This document shows positions 223 to 10,034 of a stretch of DNA of 10,034 bases, piece after piece. Each line of letters starts with the position of its first letter. The first letter of the stretch is position 1. The stretch comes from a virus. The DNA lies in UHGV virus genome UHGV-0306824. One strand, written 5' to 3'. Position numbers and translations under genes: made by a program. The notes below the pieces were generated by a model. The model ran no database searches. It was not told the origin of the DNA and was given only the letters and a program-made list of their open reading frames with translations.

Positions 223-252
223 CTTATAAAACAAACAGATAAAATAAAAACA

Positions 253-1416
253 TCACTCATCATCTTCTGTTTCGTACTCCACATCAGAAAGCCTGACCTC
301 AAGCTCTAAGGACGTCGTGAAGCCGCTATTATTCAGAAAATGTGTCACCTTAGTGATTGTCCAGTCCTGCTCGTCTATGACGCGCTTAAAGCCTGACACT
401 CTGACCGGTGTTTCCGTGTAAATATCAGCACGACCAGTGGCAAGGCTGATGGAGAACTCCGCAACGCCCCGTTGCAGTTTATCCCACTTCGCCTGAGCGG
501 CGCGCATGGCCTGCGCTTTCGTGGCATATACCGTGGTCAGGGCAAAAACGTTGTCAGCTTCACCGGCCATGTATTCACCTTCGCGCGCTTCCGGTACTTT
601 TGGCGCTTTCTTCTGCGTGACTGGTTTCGCTTTCGGGTGCTCCAGTGCGCGCAGGTGTTTCTCTTTCTTTTTGCGTTTCAGTTTTACCTTCTGCTTTTGC
701 GGCTTCGGGTCTTTGGTGTGTAACCACTTTGCCGTTACGCCGGTATAGGCTCCACGGTCAGCAATCGCAAAATGATGGCGGTCGCCGTCGCTGCGGGTTA
801 TGGTGACCTGCGGGATTTTTTTACCGCTGGCCGTCACCCCCTGCCCCGCTTTGAGAAACAACAGTTTTCCCATTTTTACCGACACCTCACCGCCGTTGCG
901 TTCTGCAAGACGGGTCAGGAATTTCGCATCAGACTCCTGCGACTGGTCGATGTGCGGGATTTTAATTCCGGCCAGTGACGGAGCGACACTGGCTTCCAGC
1001 CTGTTACGGGAGGCTATCGCCTCAACAATCGCACCGAGCGTGGTGTCATGCCAGGAGCCTTCACGGCGGGAATTGAGCGTCCCGCGGAAATCTGCACTCC
1101 GGGCGCGGATGGTGACCACATCCGGCGCGCCCCGGTGTTCAACCTCATCAACGGTGAATTTCCCTTTGCATACCAGGGCAAAACCTTTCCAGCCGATATA
1201 CACCGTCAGGACAGCGCCACGAACCGGCAACCCGACCTGCCCGTCGGCATCGTTCAGTTCAATATCAAGCTGGTCAGCCTCAAAGCCCCGGTTATCCGTC
1301 AGGGTCATGCTCATCAGACGGTCGCTGATATTGCCGGTAATATCCCTGCTGTCGAGCATCAGCATGTAATCCGGCGTCAGCGTACTACCTGCATCAAATG
1401 TCAGCGCGTCCAGCAT
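253..1416 (-). CDS. D: P2 gpD-family tail protein (late control gene D)
   Basis: 387-aa ORF, last gene of the FI-FII-E-T-U-D block and the same length I recall for P2 gpD. Its ATG (1414-1416) overlaps the U stop by one nucleotide (TAATG), indicating translational coupling. It contains a Lys-rich linker at about aa 235-275. Confidence 0.88.
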   Translation of the reverse strand: MLDALTFDAGSTLTPDYMLMLDSRDITGNISDRLMSMTLTDNRGFEADQLDIELNDADGQVGLPVRGAVLTVYIGWKGFALVCKGKFTVDEVEHRGAPDVVTIRARSADFRGTLNSRREGSWHDTTLGAIVEAIASRNRLEASVAPSLAGIKIPHIDQSQESDAKFLTRLAERNGGEVSVKMGKLLFLKAGQGVTASGKKIPQVTITRSDGDRHHFAIADRGAYTGVTAKWLHTKDPKPQKQKVKLKRKKKEKHLRALEHPKAKPVTQKKAPKVPEAREGEYMAGEADNVFALTTVYATKAQAMRAAQAKWDKLQRGVAEFSISLATGRADIYTETPVRVSGFKRVIDEQDWTITKVTHFLNNSGFTTSLELEVRLSDVEYETEDDE

Positions 1417-1895
1417 TATCCCGCCCCCGTCATACCCGTGAATCTGGTCGCCATACTGCCAGCCTTACCGATGAGCGATTCCGCCTGTTTACCGATATCG
1501 CCATAAAGCGCGGCCAGTGATTCATCCACGCGGGTGAGCGACAACGTAAAATCAATTTTCCGGGGTGTGCCGTCTGCAAAGAAAATACTCCCTGTTTCAC
1601 TCACCCTGCTGATGACATACATGCCGTAAATCATGCCGGTGCCATCCAGCAACGGCCACGCCCGGCCTTCCTCTGCCATCAGCCTGAGCGTGGTCATCGT
1701 CAGCTTCCCGCCGGTCAGTTCGGGATAAAGCACGCCGGCAAGCGTCATGTTTTCCTCACCCACACCGAGAAACTGAAAGGCATCCCGTTTACCGATACGG
1801 GGATTTGACGGCCAGCGATAATCTGATTCGCGCTGCATGGTCTGGTGTGGCAGCGTCTGGCGCATAAAAACAAACATACCTAACGCGAGCATCAT
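1416..1895 (-). CDS. U: P2 gpU-family tail protein
   Basis: 159-aa ORF between T and D in the canonical P2 order; the length matches gpU as I recall it. Its stop overlaps the D start. Confidence 0.88.
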   Translation of the reverse strand: MMLALGMFVFMRQTLPHQTMQRESDYRWPSNPRIGKRDAFQFLGVGEENMTLAGVLYPELTGGKLTMTTLRLMAEEGRAWPLLDGTGMIYGMYVISRVSETGSIFFADGTPRKIDFTLSLTRVDESLAALYGDIGKQAESLIGKAGSMATRFTGMTGAG

Positions 1896-1909
1896 TTTTC
1901 GTCACCTCC

Positions 1910-4357
1910 TTAACCGTCATGCATCATGCTGGCACGGGCGCGCGCACGTTTATCCCGCTCGTATTTTTCGAGCGCATCCTGTAACTGGCGGTCGAGCTGT
2001 GTCCCCGGCGCAGTACCACCCGTCAGGCTGATGTGATATTCGTTTTTACTCTGGTCTACATAAGAGCGGCCAGCCGGTGCCGTGACCGGCTGATAAGCCT
2101 GATAACCTGCATAAGAGCTGGTCGCCGGAATATAACCACCGGTGCCATACGTGGCGGCATGAGTCCTTGCGGCGGTCTGGTCAAGTGTGTCTGACTCTTT
2201 GTTGATAACACCGAGTTTTTCCAGTACCCAGTCAATACCGCTGCGCAGTTTGTTGAACGCATTAAGCGGCAGCCTCAGCGCGTCAGCCAGTGCCTGCCCG
2301 AACATGACCCCCGTGTCACGGCAACTGTTCAGGGTGTCCTGAGTGGCTTTGACCGGGACAATCAGGTTTTTAAACCACTGCCACGCGGCCTGTAACTTTT
2401 CACCCAGCCAGTCAAACACCGGTTTCAGTGGCGTGAACAGCTCCCCCACCGGCGCAAATGCCGCTTTCAGCCCTTCAACCACACCGCCAAAGAATGCGCT
2501 GACAGGCTCCCAGTATTTACGGATAAGCAACGCCCCGGCGACAATGGCGGCCACCACAGCCACAACCGGCCAGCTAATCGCCCCGATGGCCGTCATAACG
2601 GCACTACCAACCGTCGTGAAGATTGCCCCCATTGCGCCTGCTGCCGCGATGATGGCATTGATGCCAGTGATAACCGGCCAGGCTACAAGACCAATTGCAC
2701 CGATGATGCCAATAAGCGCCAGCGCGCCACCGGCAATGATGCCAATGGTTGACGCCAGTGATTTGTTTTTCTGGATCCAGCCGTCGAGTTTTAACACATA
2801 CTTTGTGGCCGTCTGTGTGAGCTTACGCAGTGCGCCTTCCTGCTGGTCAAACAGGTCTGTCCCCACCGCCTCATAAGCGGACTGAAACTCCTTAAAGTCA
2901 CCGCCGAGGTTGTCCTGCATGATATTTACCAGCTCGGCGGTCTTCCCGTCTGAGGCTTTAAACTCAGCGGTCAGTTTGTCCAGCTTTCCGGTTGAGGCGG
3001 CAGTCATCAGCACGGCGGCGGCTGAGCTGGCCTCCTCCCCGAAAATGGTTTTCATGTATTCAGCCTGCTGGGCAGTACCGAGCCGGTTTTTCTCAAAACT
3101 GGCCTGCATTTCTTTCAGAATGGTAAATACTGGTCGGGTATTCCCCTTACTGTCTGAGGTTTTCACGCCAAGCTCTTTGAGTGCATCCCATGCTTTTCCC
3201 GTCGGTGCCTGCAGGCGACTTAACACGGCACGGCTTCCCGTCCCCGCCATTGAGCCTGTGATTTTTGCATCATGCAGCGCCCCGACCATTGCGGCGGTTT
3301 CTTCAATGCTGACACCGGCATTTTTTGCCACTGGTGCGGCATAGGTCAGCGCATCGCTCATGCCGTCAAAATCAGCGGCGGTTTTGTTCATCGTCATGGA
3401 GAGAACATCCCCGATATGAGCGACCTTATCGTTTGAAAGCTGAAAGGCGGATTTCATCCCCATCAGCAGGGCGGCGTTTTCTTCCATCGTGCGGCGGTTC
3501 GCCAGTGCCATATTCAGCGTGACCGGCGTTGCCGCCTGAATGGCATCAACATCCCCACCGGCTTTCGCAATGATAATCTGTGCACCGGCTGCATCATCTG
3601 CCGAGGCGGCGGTGTTGTCGCCGAGCTGGCGCGCCTGCTTGCGGAGCGCGGTCATTTCGGCGGAGTCTTTTGCCACTCCGAGCACGGCCTGCAATTCTGA
3701 GTTTTTCTGCGCAAACTCATAACCGGGCATCAGCAACTTAACTCCGGCCATCGTTCCCGCCGCCGCAATCCCCACACCGGCAGCGCCCACTGAGGCCATA
3801 TTTCCGGCCAGTTCCTTGCCTGCCTGATAACGCTGTTTTACTGCGTTAAGTTTTGCCTGTTGCGCACTGACACGAGCCAGCGCGTCACGCTGACGGTTAA
3901 GCTGTGCGGTGGTTTCACTGATACGGTTTTTCAGTCCCTGCTCATCATGTGCAAGATTGCGGGTATTAATTCCCACAGCGGCCAGTTCCCGCTGCTGGCG
4001 TTTAATGGAATCTGTCAGGCGGTTATATTTCGCCTGTAAGTCCTCCGCCGCACGCTTTGCGGATTCCAGCACTTTCGCCTGAGCACGGGTCGGACGTTCG
4101 GTATTTTTAAACTGTGTGGCAAGGGCTTCGGCCTCCTGCCGTGCCTTTTCAAGTGCATGACCAGTCACGGCGAGCTGTGCACTGGTCTTGCGGAATCCCT
4201 CAATACGGGATGCGTGACCGTTCAGCTCGCGCAGTGATTTTTGTGTTTCCCGGATATCCCCCGACAGCGACCTGCTCGCTGTACGGATGGATTTAAACGG
4301 GCGGGATGCCTGGTCAACAGCCCTGAGCAATACCTGTAATTTTACATTGTTACTCAT
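1910..4357 (-). CDS. T: Tail tape measure protein (P2 gpT-like)
   Basis: 815-aa ORF. The N-terminal half is coiled-coil-like and rich in A/Q/R/K/E; a long Gly/Ala/Ile-rich hydrophobic segment sits mid-protein (IGIIAGGALALIGIIGAIGLVAWPVITG...), as is typical of tape measure proteins. It lies directly downstream of E/E', and its ATG (4355-4357) overlaps the E' stop. Confidence 0.9.
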   Translation of the reverse strand: MSNNVKLQVLLRAVDQASRPFKSIRTASRSLSGDIRETQKSLRELNGHASRIEGFRKTSAQLAVTGHALEKARQEAEALATQFKNTERPTRAQAKVLESAKRAAEDLQAKYNRLTDSIKRQQRELAAVGINTRNLAHDEQGLKNRISETTAQLNRQRDALARVSAQQAKLNAVKQRYQAGKELAGNMASVGAAGVGIAAAGTMAGVKLLMPGYEFAQKNSELQAVLGVAKDSAEMTALRKQARQLGDNTAASADDAAGAQIIIAKAGGDVDAIQAATPVTLNMALANRRTMEENAALLMGMKSAFQLSNDKVAHIGDVLSMTMNKTAADFDGMSDALTYAAPVAKNAGVSIEETAAMVGALHDAKITGSMAGTGSRAVLSRLQAPTGKAWDALKELGVKTSDSKGNTRPVFTILKEMQASFEKNRLGTAQQAEYMKTIFGEEASSAAAVLMTAASTGKLDKLTAEFKASDGKTAELVNIMQDNLGGDFKEFQSAYEAVGTDLFDQQEGALRKLTQTATKYVLKLDGWIQKNKSLASTIGIIAGGALALIGIIGAIGLVAWPVITGINAIIAAAGAMGAIFTTVGSAVMTAIGAISWPVVAVVAAIVAGALLIRKYWEPVSAFFGGVVEGLKAAFAPVGELFTPLKPVFDWLGEKLQAAWQWFKNLIVPVKATQDTLNSCRDTGVMFGQALADALRLPLNAFNKLRSGIDWVLEKLGVINKESDTLDQTAARTHAATYGTGGYIPATSSYAGYQAYQPVTAPAGRSYVDQSKNEYHISLTGGTAPGTQLDRQLQDALEKYERDKRARARASMMHDG

Positions 4358-4777
4358 TCGTGTTTCCGCTTCGCCGGAGTGCCTTTTCGCGCCATGTGAT
4401 GAGTTCGGTCAGGCTCATGGGATACAGTTCTGATGGCGGCCAGTGAAATATCACTGCCACATCCGCCATCAGGTCATCGACCGAGAGATTTTTCGGAAAC
4501 GTTACTGCACCGAGTTCGGCGACAAAAAACCGACCACCTTACCGGCCAGCGCCACAAGGTCAGGCAGTTCCAGCGCGGCGACCTCCTGCTCGGTCAGCAT
4601 CGGTGCCGTCATGCGCGGCAGTACCTTAATCAGTGCATCGACTTCGGAGTTTGCAACCGCAGCCAGACTGACACCGCGCAGCGTCCCCGCACTGGGTTTC
4701 ATCAGCGTGACCTGTTCGATAACCTGCTCACCACGCTTGACCGGATTGTCCAGGGTAATCACATTTTCTTTGTTCAT
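4350..4777 (-). CDS. Tail assembly chaperone E+E' made by -1 programmed ribosomal frameshift (predicted 142 aa)
   Basis: After the minus-strand heptamer T TTT TTG, the -1 frame stays open for 57 codons (VAELGAVTFPKNLSVDDLMADVAVIFHWPPSELYPMSLTELITWREKALRRSGNTNE) and ends at TAA 4350-4352, which overlaps the T start codon. The arrangement parallels lambda G/GT and P2 E/E+E'. Confidence 0.7.
4502..4777 (-). CDS. E: Tail assembly chaperone E (P2 gpE-like), zero-frame product
   Basis: 91-aa ORF between FII and T, ending ...KVVGFLSPNSVQ*. It contains the slippery heptamer seven codons before its stop. Confidence 0.85.
   Translation of the reverse strand: MNKENVITLDNPVKRGEQVIEQVTLMKPSAGTLRGVSLAAVANSEVDALIKVLPRMTAPMLTEQEVAALELPDLVALAGKVVGFLSPNSVQ
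4523..4529 (-). other. -1 frameshift slippery heptamer T TTT TTG (plus strand reads caaaaaa)
   Basis: Read directly: the zero-frame codons are GGT TTT TTG (G-F-L of ...VVGFL). This is a classical X XXY YYZ site, placed where tail-chaperone frameshifts occur. Confidence 0.7.
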
Positions 4778-4805
4778 GGTTTTCTCACTTCTGAATCAGG
4801 GTTAA

Positions 4806-4826
4806 CCGGTCAGCCAGGCTGACCGG
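4806..4826 (-). other. Intercistronic stem-loop between FII stop and E start
   Basis: Perfect 10-bp inverted repeat CCGGTCAGCC a GGCTGACCGG, 8 nt past the FII stop (4834-4836) and about 50 nt before the E ATG. No U-tract follows on the minus strand, so it is not a canonical intrinsic terminator. Confidence 0.4.
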
Positions 4827-4833
4827 ATGAAAA

Positions 4834-5352
4834 TTACAGGCCGATATTTCGGCGGTGTTGCTCCAGCCGGTCGACGCCGTTCACCTTCTCAATCATGTTG
4901 ATGGTGTCGATTTCGACCAGCTCCTTACCGTCCATCGTCAGCCGGAAATAGGTGCAGACCACGGAGATTTTCGACTCGGTGTCTTCTCCCTGTTTACCCT
5001 CGCCGGTGTCGATTTCTTTCTGACGTCCACGCATGACCACTTCGACGGCCACCGTTTCGCCGGTATCGTCGCGCTGGTAAGAGCCTGCAAAACGAATCGG
5101 CACGGCATCCACACCGGTTGAGGCGTAAAGCTCCCAGATAACCGAATCCGGGAAGCCCCCGAGCGACCACTCCATTGACAGCGCATCGTCATCAAGGCCG
5201 AGGTCTACCGGTGCGCTGCCGTTCATCCCCGCACCGCGATAGTTTTCGAGCTTACGGGTCAGTTTTGGCAGCGTGACGGACTTTGCAACGCCCTGATAGC
5301 TGTAGCCGTTCAGAAAGACGTTCATTAACTTGAGTTTGCGCGGCATTGCCAT
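4834..5352 (-). CDS. FII: Major tail tube protein (P2 gpFII-like)
   Basis: 172-aa ORF immediately downstream of the sheath gene; the 12-nt spacer contains GGAG. Length matches P2 FII as I recall it. Confidence 0.9.
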   Translation of the reverse strand: MAMPRKLKLMNVFLNGYSYQGVAKSVTLPKLTRKLENYRGAGMNGSAPVDLGLDDDALSMEWSLGGFPDSVIWELYASTGVDAVPIRFAGSYQRDDTGETVAVEVVMRGRQKEIDTGEGKQGEDTESKISVVCTYFRLTMDGKELVEIDTINMIEKVNGVDRLEQHRRNIGL

Positions 5353-5364
5353 CGGTCAGGCTCC

Positions 5365-6555
5365 TTAATTGCTGTTAACCGAGGTGACCAGATTTGCCAG
5401 GTATTTATCGGTAATACGCTGGCGCAGGGTCAGGTTTTCGAGAGGAGGCACCGGGGTATAGTCGTAGTCGATATACAGTTTTCCGGCCTTGAGGGTTTCC
5501 GCATCGTTGGATTCTTCGCTGAACCAGCAGGTCGCATCCACGATATAGCCGTTTGTTTTCAGCTCACGGAATTTGGCATTGATGCCGTCAACGATGTCGC
5601 GAATCAGCGTTGCGGTGATGGGCTTGTCCACCGCCCACATGTGCGCCTCAGCCATCGTGTCGGCCAGCACCTGCGCGGTGCGGGTGTAGTTTTCAAAGAG
5701 GAACAGCGGGTCATCAGAGCAGGTACGGTTACCCCAGAAGCGGAAACCGTCGCGGCGAATCAGCGTAGTGACGCCTGACTCATTAAGCAGGTCAGCATCG
5801 GTGCCGGACTCCTGCAAATCCCAGAATACAGAGGCGCTGATGCCGGTAACACCGTTCACCCCGACATTGGACAGCGTTTTATGCCAGCCCTGCTCCTGGT
5901 CGATTTTGGCACGCAGCCCCAGTGCACGGGCGGTGGCATACGCGGTGGCGGTGGTACTGGTGACCGTATCCCATGCGAGGAAATCCGGCCAGATGACCAT
6001 CAGCTCACGCTGGCTGAAATTCTGGCGGTAAGCTTTCACCTCGGAAATGGTTTTACAGCCCCATGCGCTGATATACCCGAAAGCGCGCAGCTTCTGACAG
6101 ACTGATGCCAGTGCAACAGCCACCTCTTTGGTGTCCAGTCCCGGCACGCCGAGAATACGCGGTTTAACACCGGTTACCGACTCCGCCGCCAGCAGGGCTT
6201 TCAGTCCGGTGTACTGACCGTTTTCGTCGGTGGTGCCGATGATATTGGAAACGGTCTGCGCGAGTTTCGTTTCTTCGTCGTCGCCGGTGCCGTCTTCCAC
6301 GCGCACAACAACGGTGACCGGTTTTGACTGGTCAGCGATGGCCTGTAACGACGCCGCCAGCGTGCCTTTTTTACCGGCCTTTGCAATTGCGCTCTGCACA
6401 TTAGTAATCAGCACAGGTTTATTGAGGGGGAAGGTTTCCGCATCCGCATCGCTGGCCGTGCAGACCATGCCGACAATGGCAGTGGATACGGTGGAAATGA
6501 CGCGGGTGCCGTCGTTAATCTCCAGCACCTGCACGCCGTGATGATAGTCACTCAT
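5365..6555 (-). CDS. FI: Contractile tail sheath protein (P2 gpFI-like)
   Basis: 396-aa ORF, first gene of the block, with GGAG about 8 nt upstream of its ATG. Length matches P2 FI as I recall it. Confidence 0.9.
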   Translation of the reverse strand: MSDYHHGVQVLEINDGTRVISTVSTAIVGMVCTASDADAETFPLNKPVLITNVQSAIAKAGKKGTLAASLQAIADQSKPVTVVVRVEDGTGDDEETKLAQTVSNIIGTTDENGQYTGLKALLAAESVTGVKPRILGVPGLDTKEVAVALASVCQKLRAFGYISAWGCKTISEVKAYRQNFSQRELMVIWPDFLAWDTVTSTTATAYATARALGLRAKIDQEQGWHKTLSNVGVNGVTGISASVFWDLQESGTDADLLNESGVTTLIRRDGFRFWGNRTCSDDPLFLFENYTRTAQVLADTMAEAHMWAVDKPITATLIRDIVDGINAKFRELKTNGYIVDATCWFSEESNDAETLKAGKLYIDYDYTPVPPLENLTLRQRITDKYLANLVTSVNSN

Positions 6556-6663
6556 CCGTTTAACTCCGTGGTTAATGGGTGAGTGGTATTTTCAGTTGTG
6601 CCGGAGATGTCAGGCTATTTGTCCCGGTTGGCTAATCGACAGCACAACCACCGGTAAAGAAAA
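6556..6663 (-). promoter_or_regulatory. Putative late promoter and RBS region for the FI operon (expected to be Ogr-dependent)
   Basis: Only the position is supported: about 100 nt between the upstream terminator hairpin and the FI start. I searched for a perfect TGT-N12-ACA activator-site dyad and found none. Confidence 0.3.
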
Positions 6664-6682
6664 GGCGGGCAATTTGCCCGCC
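6650..6682 (-). terminator. Intrinsic terminator (minus-strand orientation) upstream of the FI promoter region
   Basis: GGCGGGCAA t TTGCCCGCC palindrome at 6664-6682. On the minus strand it is followed by TTTTCTTTA (reverse complement of 6650-6663). On the + strand there is no good T-tract. Confidence 0.5.
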
Positions 6683-6881
6683 TGTCCTGATTTGTACTCA
6701 CTCATTTTCCGACTGACAATTTACATAGCCCAAACGCTATCAAATCTGACAGTCTGCTTTGGGTAAACTGATAATGGGCAGAGCTTTGTATGGCTAACTT
6801 CAGCATGATACCTTACAGTCAAGCTGACAAAAGGCGGAATGATTATTCGTTGATACACATCCTCCTGTAAGGAAACAAAGC

Positions 6882-7652
6882 ATGTATAAAGAACTTATAG
6901 AACAGAGACTGAATGAGGCAAAAGCCGCCAGAGCTGCGCTGAGCAAGATTAATGGTGTAATTGTCGAAAAAACACACAACCCTGACCGCGGACTGTATCT
7001 CGTTAATTATGCCAATTTACTTATGAACAGGCAGATAGACATCTTCGATGATGCGCTTCTCCTCCTCGAAAACGAACGATACCAAAGCGCTTGTATTGTT
7101 AGCCGAGGAATGATTGAAACTCATGCCTTCTCACGACTCTTAAACAAGAAAGTAGAGAAAATTTTGACTACCCAAAATGGACACGCAAGTGTAGATAACG
7201 CTATCGAAGTTATATTGAACTTTACGAATAGTTCTCGATTTAAAAAGTCAGAGCAAGAAAAGATTCAGAAAGAAGTATTTGACCCGAACGACTACATGTT
7301 TACTGAGGAGGCTAAATATCGTTTTGAAAACCTACTTGCTGTCAGTATGCATGTGATGACTGCTTTACGCGAACTCTATAAAGATGAGATGAAGCAGACT
7401 AATCAGATGGAAAGTGATTTTGAACTGACTTATGACATACTTAGCGAATATGTTCATCCTTCACAAACGAGCATCTACCACTACTACACACCTGAAACCC
7501 ACTTAGTTCCTACTTCGGTTGGTAATATTCATACTTATGTGCATGCTCAGCTACAATGTGTGAGAGCGCTACTTTTCATATTAGAAGCAAAGAGTCAACA
7601 TTATTGGTCTACACAGTTAGCAAATGAGATGACCAAACGAGCTAAAGAGTAA
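6882..7652 (+). CDS. Hypothetical protein, 256 aa; cargo gene at the G-FI moron position (P2 Z/fun-type site)
   Basis: Uninterrupted ORF with AAGGA 8 nt before its ATG. It is visibly more AT-rich than the flanking tail genes, opposite in orientation to the late operon, and predicted mostly helical. No motif I can assign, apart from an R-x5-H stretch (SRGMIETH). Confidence 0.75.
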   Translation: MYKELIEQRLNEAKAARAALSKINGVIVEKTHNPDRGLYLVNYANLLMNRQIDIFDDALLLLENERYQSACIVSRGMIETHAFSRLLNKKVEKILTTQNGHASVDNAIEVILNFTNSSRFKKSEQEKIQKEVFDPNDYMFTEEAKYRFENLLAVSMHVMTALRELYKDEMKQTNQMESDFELTYDILSEYVHPSQTSIYHYYTPETHLVPTSVGNIHTYVHAQLQCVRALLFILEAKSQHYWSTQLANEMTKRAKE

Positions 7653-7767
7653 GGCCTAAGCCCTGCAATGTGTTTATTTGAAAAATATTTCAATTTTTTC
7701 TTTGTATGCTGTAAATGACCTGAGTCCCTCTGACCAGAGAGCCTTGATGTTATCAATGTCCGCTCCT

Positions 7768-7900
7768 GGCACAGAGCGGACTGTCAGATTAGGGGTTACT
7801 CTGTGTTATAGATATGTGAGCTCACACCAGAGCTTATACAGCTTATTGTGGCATTTCCGGCCATTCAGGATTTGCAGGATCCACACGACTGACCAGAACG
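7768..7900. repeat. R1 copy a: 133 bp comprising the last 19 codons of a minus-strand tfa plus 75 bp of its 3' flank
   Basis: About 92% identical by eye (roughly 10 mismatches) to 8456-8588 in the same orientation. Confidence 0.8.
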
Positions 7901-7997
7901 CTGTAGCGTTCCCATGATTCCAGTCGGCTACGCTCCTCATCTGTTGCCATGTTCAGTCTGACCGCGCGCTCCAGCGGCAAAATCACGGATTCGGCAT
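7843..7997 (-). pseudogene. Tail fibre assembly protein (P2 gpG / Tfa family), 3' remnant only
   Basis: Minus strand reads [50 protein letters not shown], a Tfa-family C-terminus. The frame runs only 57 codons back to an in-frame TGA (rc of 8017-8019) with no start. Homology to the + strand tfa copy stops abruptly at about 7997. Confidence 0.7.
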
Positions 7998-7998
7998 T

Positions 7999-8106
7999 AT
8001 TGTTCAGGATACCGGCTCAAACTCTGCCGATAGCATTGGTGGCATATATTACAGACCGGTGCAGAAATACATTAACGGGACATGGTATAACGTAGCGCAG
8101 GTATAA
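7999..8106 (+). pseudogene. Possible 3' fragment of a tail-fibre (H/Stf-like) gene, directly upstream of the + strand tfa
   Basis: Frame reads ...[36 protein letters not shown] with its stop 3 nt before the tfa ATG (TAA ttt ATG). That is the usual fibre-chaperone spacing, but the assignment rests on context only. Confidence 0.35.
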
Positions 8107-8250
8107 TTTATGCAGCATTTAAAAAATATTACGGCGGGTAATCCAAAAACGGTTGAACAATATCAATTGACAAAGAATTTTGATGTTGTCTGGTTTTTTT
8201 CAGAAGATGGTAAGAACTGGTACGAAGAACAAAAGTATTTTGCTGATGAC

Positions 8251-8367
8251 ACGATAAAAATAGCGTACGACAAAGATAATATCATCCACTATGTGGAAAA
8301 GGATGTGACAGCTATCAGACCGGATGGATTAAGTGTTGTTGAAGTGGCGGATATTACTGCTAACCGA
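8251..8367 (+). repeat. tfa-internal 117-bp direct repeat, copy 1
   Basis: 115 of 117 identical to 8586-8702; the mismatches are A/G at two positions (gacaaAgat vs gacaaGgat; catccActat vs catccGctat). Confidence 0.85.
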
Positions 8368-8455
8368 GCTGGAGCTGGTTGTGTTTAATGAAAAATTACA
8401 ATTTTAATACGTCCGCTGTACACCCTTAGCTGCCGTTAGCTTAACGTCCGCAACA
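8368..8455 (+). repeat. R2 copy 1: 88-bp element at the breakpoint inside tfa
   Basis: GCTGGAGCTGGTTGTGTTTAATGAAAAATTACAATTTTAATACGTCCGCTGTACACCCTTAGCTGCCGTTAGCTTAACGTCCGCAACA, identical to 9130-9217. Confidence 0.85.
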
Positions 8456-8588
8456 GGCACAGAGCGGACTGTCAGATTAGGCTTTACTCTGTACCATAGA
8501 TATGTAAGCTCACACCAGAGTTCATACAACTTATTGCGGCATTTCCGGCCATTCAGGATTTGCAGGATCCACACGACTGACCAGAACG
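8456..8588. repeat. R1 copy b: inverted tfa 3' end (last 18 codons, ..[18 protein letters not shown]) plus 3' flank, lying inside the + strand tfa
   Basis: About 92% identical to 7768-7900. It encodes on the minus strand exactly the C-terminal residues that the + strand tfa lacks. Confidence 0.8.
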
Positions 8589-8702
8589 ATAAAAATAGCG
8601 TACGACAAGGATAATATCATCCGCTATGTGGAAAAGGATGTGACAGCTATCAGACCGGATGGATTAAGTGTTGTTGAAGTGGCGGATATTACTGCTAACC
8701 GA
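8586..8702 (+). repeat. tfa-internal 117-bp direct repeat, copy 2
   Basis: See copy 1; it shares ACG (8586-8588) with the end of R1b. Confidence 0.85.
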
Positions 8703-9129
8703 CGGGCGGACATTTCAGGGGGCTGGATGTTTAAGGACGGAAAAGTGATTAAACGCATTTATACGGCAGAGGAATTGCAGCAGCAGGCAGAAAACCGGAA
8801 AGCCAGACTTCTTGCAGATGCTGAATCCGTGATTTTGCCGCTGGAGCGCGCGGTCAGACTGAACATGGCAACAGAGGAGGAGCGCACACGGCTGGAGGCT
8901 TGGGAACGCTACAGCGTTCTGGTCAGTCGTGTGAATTAATAGTCTTTATTAATCATAATATTTAAATAATTAGGCTGCTTTTTTAATTGAACTATAAAGA
9001 ATAAGCAACCCACTCAATAAGATACACTTTATTTATTCTGGTGCAATATTAAAAACGCATAATAAGTGTCATTTTCATTGCTCGTGAATGCCATTACTCT
9101 TAAATCGTGATCCGGTTCAAAATTTAGAG

Positions 9130-9217
9130 GCTGGAGCTGGTTGTGTTTAATGAAAAATTACAATTTTAATACGTCCGCTGTACACCCTTAGCTGCCGTTA
9201 GCTTAACGTCCGCAACA
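9130..9217 (+). repeat. R2 copy 2: 88-bp element abutting the 5' end of the DarT-like frame
   Basis: Identical to 8368-8455. Its last 11 nt supply the in-frame codons R-P-Q just before the DarT-like sequence; an in-frame TAA sits at 9204-9206. Confidence 0.85.
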
Positions 9218-9218
9218 T

Positions 9219-9545
9219 GTTTATCATTTTACATACATTGATAATCTTGAGGGAATTATAAAAAATGGATTACTTAGTACAAATTTAAAATCAAATAGAG
9301 GCATTATTCATAAAGATATAGCAAATAATGAAATACAACACCGTCGTAGTGAAATGAGGGTCACTTGTGGTCCAGGTGGAGTGGTCCATGATTATGTGCC
9401 TTTTTACTTCACTAAAAGATCTCCCATGTTACTTAATGTTATTAAGAAAAAAAACGTAGATCAAGAAGGAATTATATATCTTGCGATACCAATAGAGGCG
9501 ATAGAAGATAAATCAGTAGTTTTTTCAAATTCTTACCACATTTAA
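9219..9545 (+). pseudogene. DarT-like DNA ADP-ribosyltransferase toxin (DUF4433-like), N-terminal part; no start codon and truncated at a rearrangement junction
   Basis: Frame reads VYHFTYIDNLEGIIKNGLLSTNLKSNRGIIHKDIANNEIQHRRSEMRVTCGPGGVVHDYVPFYFTKRSPMLLNVIKKKNVDQEGIIYLAIPIEAIEDKSVVFSNS then SYHI*. The motifs YHxT..NL, GGxxHDYVPFYF and SPML match what I recall of the DarT family. There is no ATG/GTG/TTG between the upstream TAA (9204) and the conserved N-terminus; the first ATG is at 9354. Confidence 0.55.
9418..9534 (+). repeat. R3 copy a: 117-bp perfect direct repeat inside the DarT-like frame
   Basis: Identical by eye to 9685-9801 (GATCTCCCATGTTACTTAATG...TTTTTTCAAATTCTT). Confidence 0.85.
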
Positions 9546-9605
9546 ATCATGAAAGTAATGATGATCAAATGATCTAGAATCACAACGAACATCAAAATTA
9601 TTAAA

Positions 9606-9685
9606 CCCATATTTTTTCAATAGCTGTGCAACATGCGTTTTCACGCAAAGATTCCAAACAACAATAAATGAAAAATTATTGAAGG
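9606..9685. repeat. Inverted copy (reverse complement) of 9955-10034, the DarT-like 3' coding segment
   Basis: Perfect 80-bp inverted repeat; I checked 9611-9660 base by base against 9980-10029. The pairing reaches the window edge, so the repeat may extend to 9535 on this side. Confidence 0.85.
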
Positions 9686-9801
9686 ATCTCCCATGTTACT
9701 TAATGTTATTAAGAAAAAAAACGTAGATCAAGAAGGAATTATATATCTTGCGATACCAATAGAGGCGATAGAAGATAAATCAGTAGTTTTTTCAAATTCT
9801 T
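9685..9801 (+). repeat. R3 copy b
   Basis: See R3 copy a. Confidence 0.85.
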
Positions 9802-10034
9802 CTGCAAATACTTTAACGCCACCAACATTTTACTCTAATGCTGATGATTTAAATAAGCTAAATTGGGATGCAATTGACAGTAGAGTGTGGATCCCAAAGA
9901 CCGAAGGAGTAAAACAGCAAAAAATGGCAGAGTTGCTTATTCATGATGAAATTCCCTTCAATAATTTTTCATTTATTGTTGTTTGGAATCTTTGCGTGAA
10001 AACGCATGTTGCACAGCTATTGAAAAAATATGGG
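9693..10034 (+). CDS. DarT-like toxin, C-terminal portion; frame open to the window end (3' partial, lacks the N-terminal region)
   Basis: From ATG 9693: MLLNVIKKKNVDQEGIIYLAIPIEAIEDKSVVFSNSSANTLTPPTFYSNADDLNKLNWDAIDSRVWIPKTEGVKQQKMAELLIHDEIPFNNFSFIVVWNLCVKTHVAQLLKKYG, 114 codons with no stop. The ..KMAELLIHD.. helix fits the Glu-containing catalytic motif of ADP-ribosyltransferases. It is absent from the ORF track only because it runs off the edge. Confidence 0.5.
   Translation, partial: MLLNVIKKKNVDQEGIIYLAIPIEAIEDKSVVFSNSSANTLTPPTFYSNADDLNKLNWDAIDSRVWIPKTEGVKQQKMAELLIHDEIPFNNFSFIVVWNLCVKTHVAQLLKKYG
9955..10034. repeat. Right arm of the inverted repeat (coding orientation of the DarT-like gene)
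   Basis: Reverse complement of 9606-9685. Confidence 0.85.

Follow-up and report, generated by a model that had tools for sequence, protein, structure and literature searches.

A tfa breakpoint in a P2-like prophage sequence is one of eight strand-flipping joints and probably part of a chimeric artefact

Near the right end of virus genome UHGV-0306824, a tfa gene appears to break off into AT-rich DNA, with its missing end lying inverted upstream. Analyzing the whole 10,034-nt stretch, hereafter called the window, we found that this switch, at 8933/8934, is one of eight non-homologous, strand-flipping joints around a colinear 7.8-kb block of a P2-like prophage. The switch is not supported as the boundary of an inserted island; taken as biology, such a boundary within tfa is not a real feature. 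The geometry of the joints and the comparison with intact relatives suggest that the scramble is probably an amplification, library or assembly chimera and not an island edge. The real loci are most likely intact: a tfa with its full C-terminus, followed by 88 nt of conserved flank and then by cargo.

Results

The window carries the tail-gene block of a P2-like prophage

The ORF listing and a comparison with annotated E. coli genomes identify a P2-like prophage, represented in the window by its late (tail) gene module on the minus strand. The genes D (253–1416), U (1416–1895), T (tape measure, 1910–4357), E (4502–4777), FII (tube, 4834–5352) and FI (sheath, 5365–6555) all lie on that strand. 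To the right of FI stands a plus-strand gene of lower GC content (6882–7652), whose product matches Pfam DUF5677 (E = 1.3e-10). Beyond it, back on the minus strand, homology identifies the 3′ end of a tfa gene (7843–7992, with an ORF fragment at 7843–7986), which keeps the full C-terminus and is cut at one of the joints (J1, below).

We denote as A type the DUF5677-type P2-like prophage, represented by reference loci L001 and L003–L012, and as B type the DarTG-type P2-like prophage, represented by reference locus L002; the tfa 3′ end just mentioned is of the A type. The same DUF5677 protein occurs in the order FI (minus), DUF5677 (plus), tfa (minus, 175 aa), H (minus) in 212 blocks of a public assembly index, and blastn aligned window 223–7997 to L003 3343–11116 (plus strand) as a colinear block at 98.7% identity. 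The exact 815-aa tape-measure protein was found in one public contig only, a 4,751-nt contig of the Logan assembly of SRR11412778, which differs from window 1831–6581 by 2 mismatches and stops short of the scrambled parts; a literature search found no paper naming this run. Because the exact protein is on record in that one contig only, the prophage variant of the window is rare in databases.

All joints connect nearby sites on opposite strands

Alignment by blastn against L001–L003, and against L004 for positions 1–223, divided 7992–10034 into seven pieces on alternating strands; 1–223 is flipped too, which gives eight joints (J0–J7) and leaves no base unaccounted for. The leftmost piece (P0, 1–223, plus strand) holds the 3′ part of ogr (Ogr_Delta) with its terminator, equals L004 3254–3032 and is inverted relative to D. 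In all reference loci that extend to ogr, this gene points the same way as D (20 or more reference loci, and the IMG/VR relatives that reach ogr). J0, at 223, connects L004 3032 with 3342 (a jump of 310 nt, with a 1-nt overlap, C) and leads into the A-type backbone (P1, 223–7992, minus strand, 98.7% identical to L003), which runs from D to the tfa 3′ end.

Over its last 2 kb, the window zig-zags forward and backward along H–tfa–darT, with A-type alleles first and DarTG-type sequence last. At J1 (7992; overlap C, 1 nt; L003 11111/11607, jump 496 nt), the sequence turns into P2 (7992–8367, plus strand; L003 11607–11232, 99.7%), which contains the 3′ end of H (stop codon at 8104–8106) and tfa nt 1–258 (8110–8367). 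J2 (8367/8368; no overlap; L002 6380/6813, jump 433 nt) flips it into P3 (8368–8588, minus strand; L002 6813→6593, 100%), an inverted B-type tfa 3′ end (8531–8588) with 163 nt of flank. J3 (8586–8588; overlap ACG, 3 nt; L002 6593/6264, jump 329 nt) flips it back into P4 (8586–8933, plus strand; L002 6264–6611), which is B-type tfa nt 142–489; the blastn match itself was 8586–8936 to 6264–6614 at 99.7%, and the reading frame closes as RVN* at 8937–8939.

The tfa switch is J4 (8932–8933; overlap TG, 2 nt; L002 6611/7011, jump 400 nt). It leads into P5 (8932–9217, minus strand; L002 7011→6726, 100%), the inverted tfa–darT spacer of the DarTG cargo. From there, J5 (9217/9218; no overlap; L002 6726/7092, jump 366 nt) opens P6 (9218–9534, plus strand; L002 7092–7408, 100%), which is darT nt 30–346, and J6 (9534; overlap T, 1 nt; L002 7408/7713, jump 305 nt) opens P7 (9534–9685, minus strand; L002 7713→7562, 100%), which is darT nt 500–651, inverted. 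After J7 (9685; overlap G, 1 nt; L002 7562/7292, jump 270 nt), the last piece, P8 (9685–10034, plus strand; L002 7292–7641; blastn match 9682–10034 to 7289–7641, 99.7%), covers darT nt 230–579 and runs off the window.

Opposite strands are thus paired at 8/8 joints, the paired sites being 270–496 nt apart (mean 364, SD 71), without filler bases; the overlaps of 0–3 nt are about the chance level for blunt joins. Pieces P3–P8 are 99.7–100% identical to L002. Three joints fall within darT, and J0, at ogr, lies 8.7 kb from the tfa breakpoint.

The tfa switch does not mark an inserted island

The first-pass annotation had seen an AT-rich island whose boundary fell inside the tfa 3′ end; the island and the inversion of the displaced gene end had appeared to be products of one event or breakpoint. 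Its description of the gene was accurate: the plus-strand ORF at 8628–8939, a Caudo_TAP protein (Pfam E = 2.7e-26), ends in YSVLVSRVN* instead of the long C-terminus, which is present in the minus-strand fragment at 7843–7986 and in the intact reference tfa with which we compared it. A switch into AT-rich sequence after the tfa match had likewise been described correctly, with GC dropping to about 0.31 beyond 8933; the end of the match had been set one base off, at 8932. The plus-strand tfa is identical to the reference tfa through 8933 exactly, and the string GTTCTGGTCAGTCGTGTG, previously assigned to 8915–8932, occupies 8916–8933. The lost tfa codons do lie inverted upstream (8531–8588, minus strand). 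They had been reported with 75 bp of flank, at 8456–8588; the inverted piece is larger, 8368–8588, and includes 163 nt of downstream flank (L002 6813→6593, 100% identity throughout). At 119 nt (92%) and 22 nt (95%), the inverted repeats are far above chance expectation.

The inverted copy had also been said to begin at the same boundary at which the plus-strand tfa ends, and here the comparison with L002 disagrees: the inverted piece stops at L002 6593 and the plus-strand tfa at L002 6611, so the breakpoints differ, overlap by ~20 nt and are not reciprocal. Microhomology, which the annotation had proposed to look for at the two breakpoints, is present but minimal (TG at 8932–8933 and ACG at 8586–8588). 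The AT-rich sequence at 8934–9217 turned out to be the ordinary tfa–darT spacer in reverse (L002 7011→6726).

A P2-like prophage (H, tfa, darT, darG, FI) whose tfa–darT stretch is 100% identical to the window pieces is present in three complete E. coli genomes. All three are 100% identical over L002 6560–7100, which begins in the 3′ end of tfa and reaches into darT, and their tfa is intact, at 175 aa; the tfa truncation is therefore specific to this window. An intact tfa with the long C-terminus at this position, which the first-pass annotation had named as refuting its claim, is thus present in the three reference genomes.

Insertion of an AT-rich island into the tfa 3′ end, by the same event that inverted the displaced end, would account for the truncation of tfa exactly at the start of the AT-rich sequence and for the location of the missing end, inverted, 345 nt upstream. 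We consider this highly improbable, given that the AT-rich DNA is a reversed native spacer, that the two breakpoints are not a reciprocal pair, that relatives with identical cargo sequence keep a complete tfa, with the cargo 88 nt after its stop, and that the window has six more such joints at other places, three of them in darT and one at ogr. What stands of the single-event proposal is that 8933/8934 is a breakpoint and that the inverted tfa end belongs to the same scramble; the two represent two of eight joints.

The cargo slot starts downstream of tfa

The fun-locus defence hotspot of P2-like phages has been described by Vassallo et al. 2022 (PMC9519451). In the window, this cargo slot, between FI and tfa, spans 6762–7754 and holds the plus-strand DUF5677 gene (6882–7652). 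Its edges are at 6761/6762 and 7754/7755, the latter being 88 nt beyond the tfa stop. Homology between the A and B types ends at window 7755 (L002 6738) on the tfa side and at window 6761 on the other side, not at 8933. Consistent with these edges, >900 complete genomes match the probe L002 6560–7100 only to about nt 180, about 89 nt past the tfa stop, and many IMG/VR relatives likewise lose homology at 6761. Since tfa is full length and the shared backbone continues past its stop, the cargo slot starts downstream of tfa, not within it. The proposed placement of an island boundary inside the tfa 3′ end is not supported by the intact relatives, in which cargo begins only downstream of a full-length tfa.

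The slot is flanked by a perfect 12-nt inverted repeat, AATCTGACAGTC / GACTGTCAGATT, at 6743–6754 and 7779–7790 (19 nt at 89%). The repeat lies just within the conserved flanks on both sides of the slot and is also found at L002 6703 and 9799 and in L014, L016, L017, L020, L021, L022 and L033. It is kept with DUF5677, DarTG or other cargo and is absent with the invertase module of L015, L018, L019 and L023. The pair could be terminators, or a landmark for cassette exchange. As for the cargo itself, the 256-aa DUF5677 slot protein has no PADLOC match, and an identical protein is present in 212 public assembly blocks; it is an uncharacterised, fairly common hotspot cargo and may be a defence candidate. 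In L021, the slot (1445–4524) contains a 476-aa protein, an integrase-family gene and a 269-aa protein.

Four loci with an identical gpD (L015, L018, L019 and L023) hold in the slot (about 2200–4800 in each) a Resolvase-family (PF00239) invertase and opposed tfa/fibre-tip genes; the slot content of these loci is a true invertible tail-fibre module. Programmed tail-fibre switching by invertases occurs in Mu, P1, e14 and some P2-like prophages. A Gin/Cin/Pin-type invertase acting in the window would fit the presence of tfa and H fragments on both strands, and the module with opposed tfa genes occupies the same slot in the four loci. As an account of the window, such switching is nevertheless scarcely credible. 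A scan of seven ORFs (that of ogr and those starting at 6882 or beyond) gave no Resolvase match, and the larger ORFs between 253 and 6555 correspond to genes that are annotated as tail genes in L001. The window shows no enrichment of the AAACCNNGGTTT-type core (8 matches versus 5.4 expected, none of them at a joint), the joints have no crossover sequence in common, sharing 0–3 nt, and they lie inside tfa, inside darT and at ogr. Furthermore, three segments (88, 120 and 80 nt) occur twice, which conservative site-specific inversion cannot bring about.

Duplicated segments and the change of prophage type

The 88-nt direct repeat at 8368–8455 and 9130–9217 (88/88 identical) is L002 6726–6813, contained in both P3 and P5. 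P8 contains a direct copy of some of P6 and an inverted copy of some of P7. The inverted copy is identical at 80/80 nt, and the 120-nt direct repeat (9415–9534 and 9682–9801) has one difference, at 9417, outside the shared L002 7292–7408. The duplicated copies show no divergence since their formation. Conservative recombination is ruled out because these duplications are beyond its reach. A single simple inversion was rejected, as it would give reciprocal joint pairs and no duplicated segments, unlike what is seen. Also rejected was homologous recombination between two prophages in inverted orientation: the genes would have stayed colinear, and the joints, where 0–3 nt only are shared, would need to be homologous. 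With conservative mechanisms out, what is left is copy-choice or the joining of nearby opposite strands, in the cell, in the tube or in the computer.

The window has A-type alleles to 8288, a stretch that is identical in A and B at 8289–8367 (79 nt) and B-type alleles from 8368. As the 79 nt are common to both types, the change from A to B can have passed through shared sequence; the geometry of J2 is the same as that of the joints within B-type sequence. From the H 3′ end to darT, every base is present at least once save for 120 nt of tfa and 80 nt at the start of darT, which are in neither type's pieces.

Several other candidates were considered and set aside. The copies of the tfa segment differ at two positions only, with A at 8274 and 8288 and G at 8609 and 8623. 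This has the look of adenine mutagenesis by a diversity-generating retroelement; the differences are A-type versus B-type alleles, and no reverse transcriptase is present. Proximity-ligation (Hi-C) joints at GATC/AATT would place such sites at the breakpoints, and J4 and J7 do abut sites, but these occur in 7/16 breakpoint windows against a background of 24%, at inconsistent positions. An IS or transposon insertion was rejected in view of the absence of a transposase, terminal repeats or a target duplication. The string GGCTGGAGCTG (9129–9139), considered as a priming site of a laboratory cassette, is native DarTG-prophage sequence (L002 6726–6813).

darT is present as fragments

In L002, a full-length tfa (6123–6650) is followed by darT (7063–8397; PADLOC DarT) and by the macro-domain gene darG (8394–9509; PADLOC DarG, E = 6e-58). 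The pieces at window 9218–10034 match DarT (Pfam PF14487 and PADLOC DarT) as three overlapping fragments on alternating strands, which cover profile positions 47–107 and 68–186 of 201 and include no complete ORF. The start region of darT (L002 7012–7091) is missing from the window, which ends inside darT and lacks darG. As written in the window, darT is, judging by its sequence, not a functional system.

The DarT protein of L002 has 444 aa, with the DarT domain limited to residues 5–200. Its C-terminal half shows weak HD and Cas3-HD-like matches (Pfam HD, weak; PADLOC Cas3, E = 1e-3), which suggests a putative DarT–HD fusion.

Joint sequences are absent from reference collections

For each of the eight joints, we compared a 95-nt probe with the joint at its centre with 5,426 complete E. 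coli genomes. No joint was crossed in any of these genomes; 3 to 1,631 records matched one half of a probe or the other. The backbone sides matched hundreds to 1,600 genomes, and the darT sides matched three DarTG-type genomes. None of the 5,426 genomes covered at least 80% of window 6500–10034, and none of the best-scoring complete genomes listed had the DUF5677 cargo and this darT cargo together. The exact joint strings had no match in IMG/VR, among the GTDB representatives or in the JGI metagenomes, and an exact search of a 153-billion-gene index found none of the chimeric ORFs. A SNP-bearing 32-mer of the window had no match in GTDB and was present in 12 IMG/VR contigs, in all of which the gene order is normal. 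Absence from reference collections is no proof of absence in nature.

Discussion

We favour a chimeric artefact because there are eight joints, located on either side of a 7.8-kb block that is otherwise intact, the duplicated copies are undiverged, the prophage type changes via a shared stretch and nothing alike exists in thousands of genomes. The joints would have been made outside the cell, as strand-displacement (MDA-type) chimeras, as library molecules combining opposite strands or as read pairs that were left unsplit or not reverse-complemented. Where two P2-like prophages occurred together and had sequence in common, the true path would have been ambiguous, and the assembler would then have followed chimeric ones. 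A forward read directly joined to its mate would give exactly such converging joints, and reads of 150 nt would imply inserts of 420–646 nt. Fragmentation enzymes, too, yield molecules that link nearby opposite-strand DNA. Against an artefact, eight chained joints in 2.3 kb are unusually dense for any single known artefact, and de Bruijn assemblers normally prune single-read chimeric paths.

The published properties of MDA chimeras allow a closer comparison. More than 85% of them are inverted joins within one molecule (PMC1855051), with about 70% as the other published figure (PMC1855051, PMC4595205), the chimeric distance peaks at 250–300 nt, and multi-level chimeras occur (PMC4595205). In the window, 8/8 joints are inverted, with jumps of 270–496 nt, which matches this geometry. 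The published junction overlap is 2–21 nt in 70% of cases, with a peak at 6 nt (PMC1855051, PMC4595205); in the window, an overlap of at least 2 nt is found at 2/8 joints (TG and ACG), and two joints have none. MDA in particular fits imperfectly because the microhomology of 0–3 nt is shorter than published. Such very short overlaps are a better fit to read-pair joining or blunt joining than to MDA priming.

The same joints could have arisen in vivo, in a burst of template switching (fork stalling, MMBIR or remodelled tandem-inversion duplications) in a cell with two P2-like prophages, which would have left a dead tail-fibre/darT region. Strand switches less than 500 nt apart, with 0–3 nt of overlap and no filler, are also the signature of template switching within a fork, replicative mechanisms would be expected to leave segments duplicated and inverted, and the sequence is otherwise of high quality, with 99.7–100% identity to the references. 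A genuine rearrangement would, however, require eight switches within 2.3 kb, split between two sites separated by 7.8 kb, and duplicate copies of zero divergence, and neither the 5,426 complete E. coli genomes nor three large collections yielded a second case. It also needs both prophage types in one cell, and no best-scoring complete genome listed matched both cargoes. There is no apparent selective rationale, and inverted repeats of 80–120 nt with short spacers would be unstable in vivo. We therefore regard an in vivo origin as unlikely in its own right, and it is less likely than an artefact.

A narrower form of this idea is improbable: that the scramble is real and records a single replication catastrophe in a two-prophage lysogen, with at least eight template switches between nascent and template strands, centred on darT and inactivating the toxin gene. 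DarT ADP-ribosylates single-stranded DNA and stalls forks. If this account were true, the darT-centred scramble would be a bacterial, kilobase-scale analogue of chromoanasynthesis. More generally, if the joints are real, they form an unusually dense template-switch cluster that deserves a closer look.

If the scramble is the artefact that we favour, the main value of this analysis lies in caution: a plausible story of an island breakpoint within a gene was a local view of what is probably a scrambled contig end. Any annotation built on the window would be wrong, among them a truncated tfa, an "RVN*" variant, a split darT and the repeats termed R1 and R1b in the first-pass annotation. The P2-like backbone, the fun-locus cargo slot, DUF5677 and DarTG are already known, and the exchangeable tfa–FI cargo of P2-like prophages, with DUF5677 in one type and DarTG in the other, is ordinary and described.

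Among known systems, tandem inversion duplications of enterobacteria resemble the window in their direct–inverted–direct copies, their junctions at very short inverted homologies and their later remodelling by deletion. Such duplications and template-switch rearrangements were reportedly characterized in Salmonella by Kugelberg and Roth. They are single, kilobase-scale events under amplification selection, whereas the window has eight joints, pieces of 150–380 nt and no evident selection. The invertible segments of the Gin/Cin/Pin type likewise bring pieces of tail fibre and tfa coding sequence side by side on both strands; unlike them, the window has no invertase and no crossover sites, and it has duplications.

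The second defence hotspot of P2-like phages (the Z/fun locus, between the tfa gene G and the sheath gene FI) corresponds to the position of the window's DUF5677 gene between FI and tfa, and its content in the references varies from darT–darG (L002) to an invertase module or other cargo; the breakpoint at 8933 is, by contrast, not a boundary of this slot. The window also shares with DarTG systems fragments of the DarT family, but where the reference has darT followed by the macro-domain gene darG, the window has darT fragments only, with no start region, and ends within darT, short of the place where darG would follow. Finally, the inverted chimeras of MDA (Lasken & Stockwell 2007; Tu et al. 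2015) match the window in that all eight joints are inverted, with intramolecular geometry and a span of a few hundred nt; they differ in their typical overlaps of 5–8 or 2–21 nt, compared with 0–3 nt here, and the window chains eight joints.
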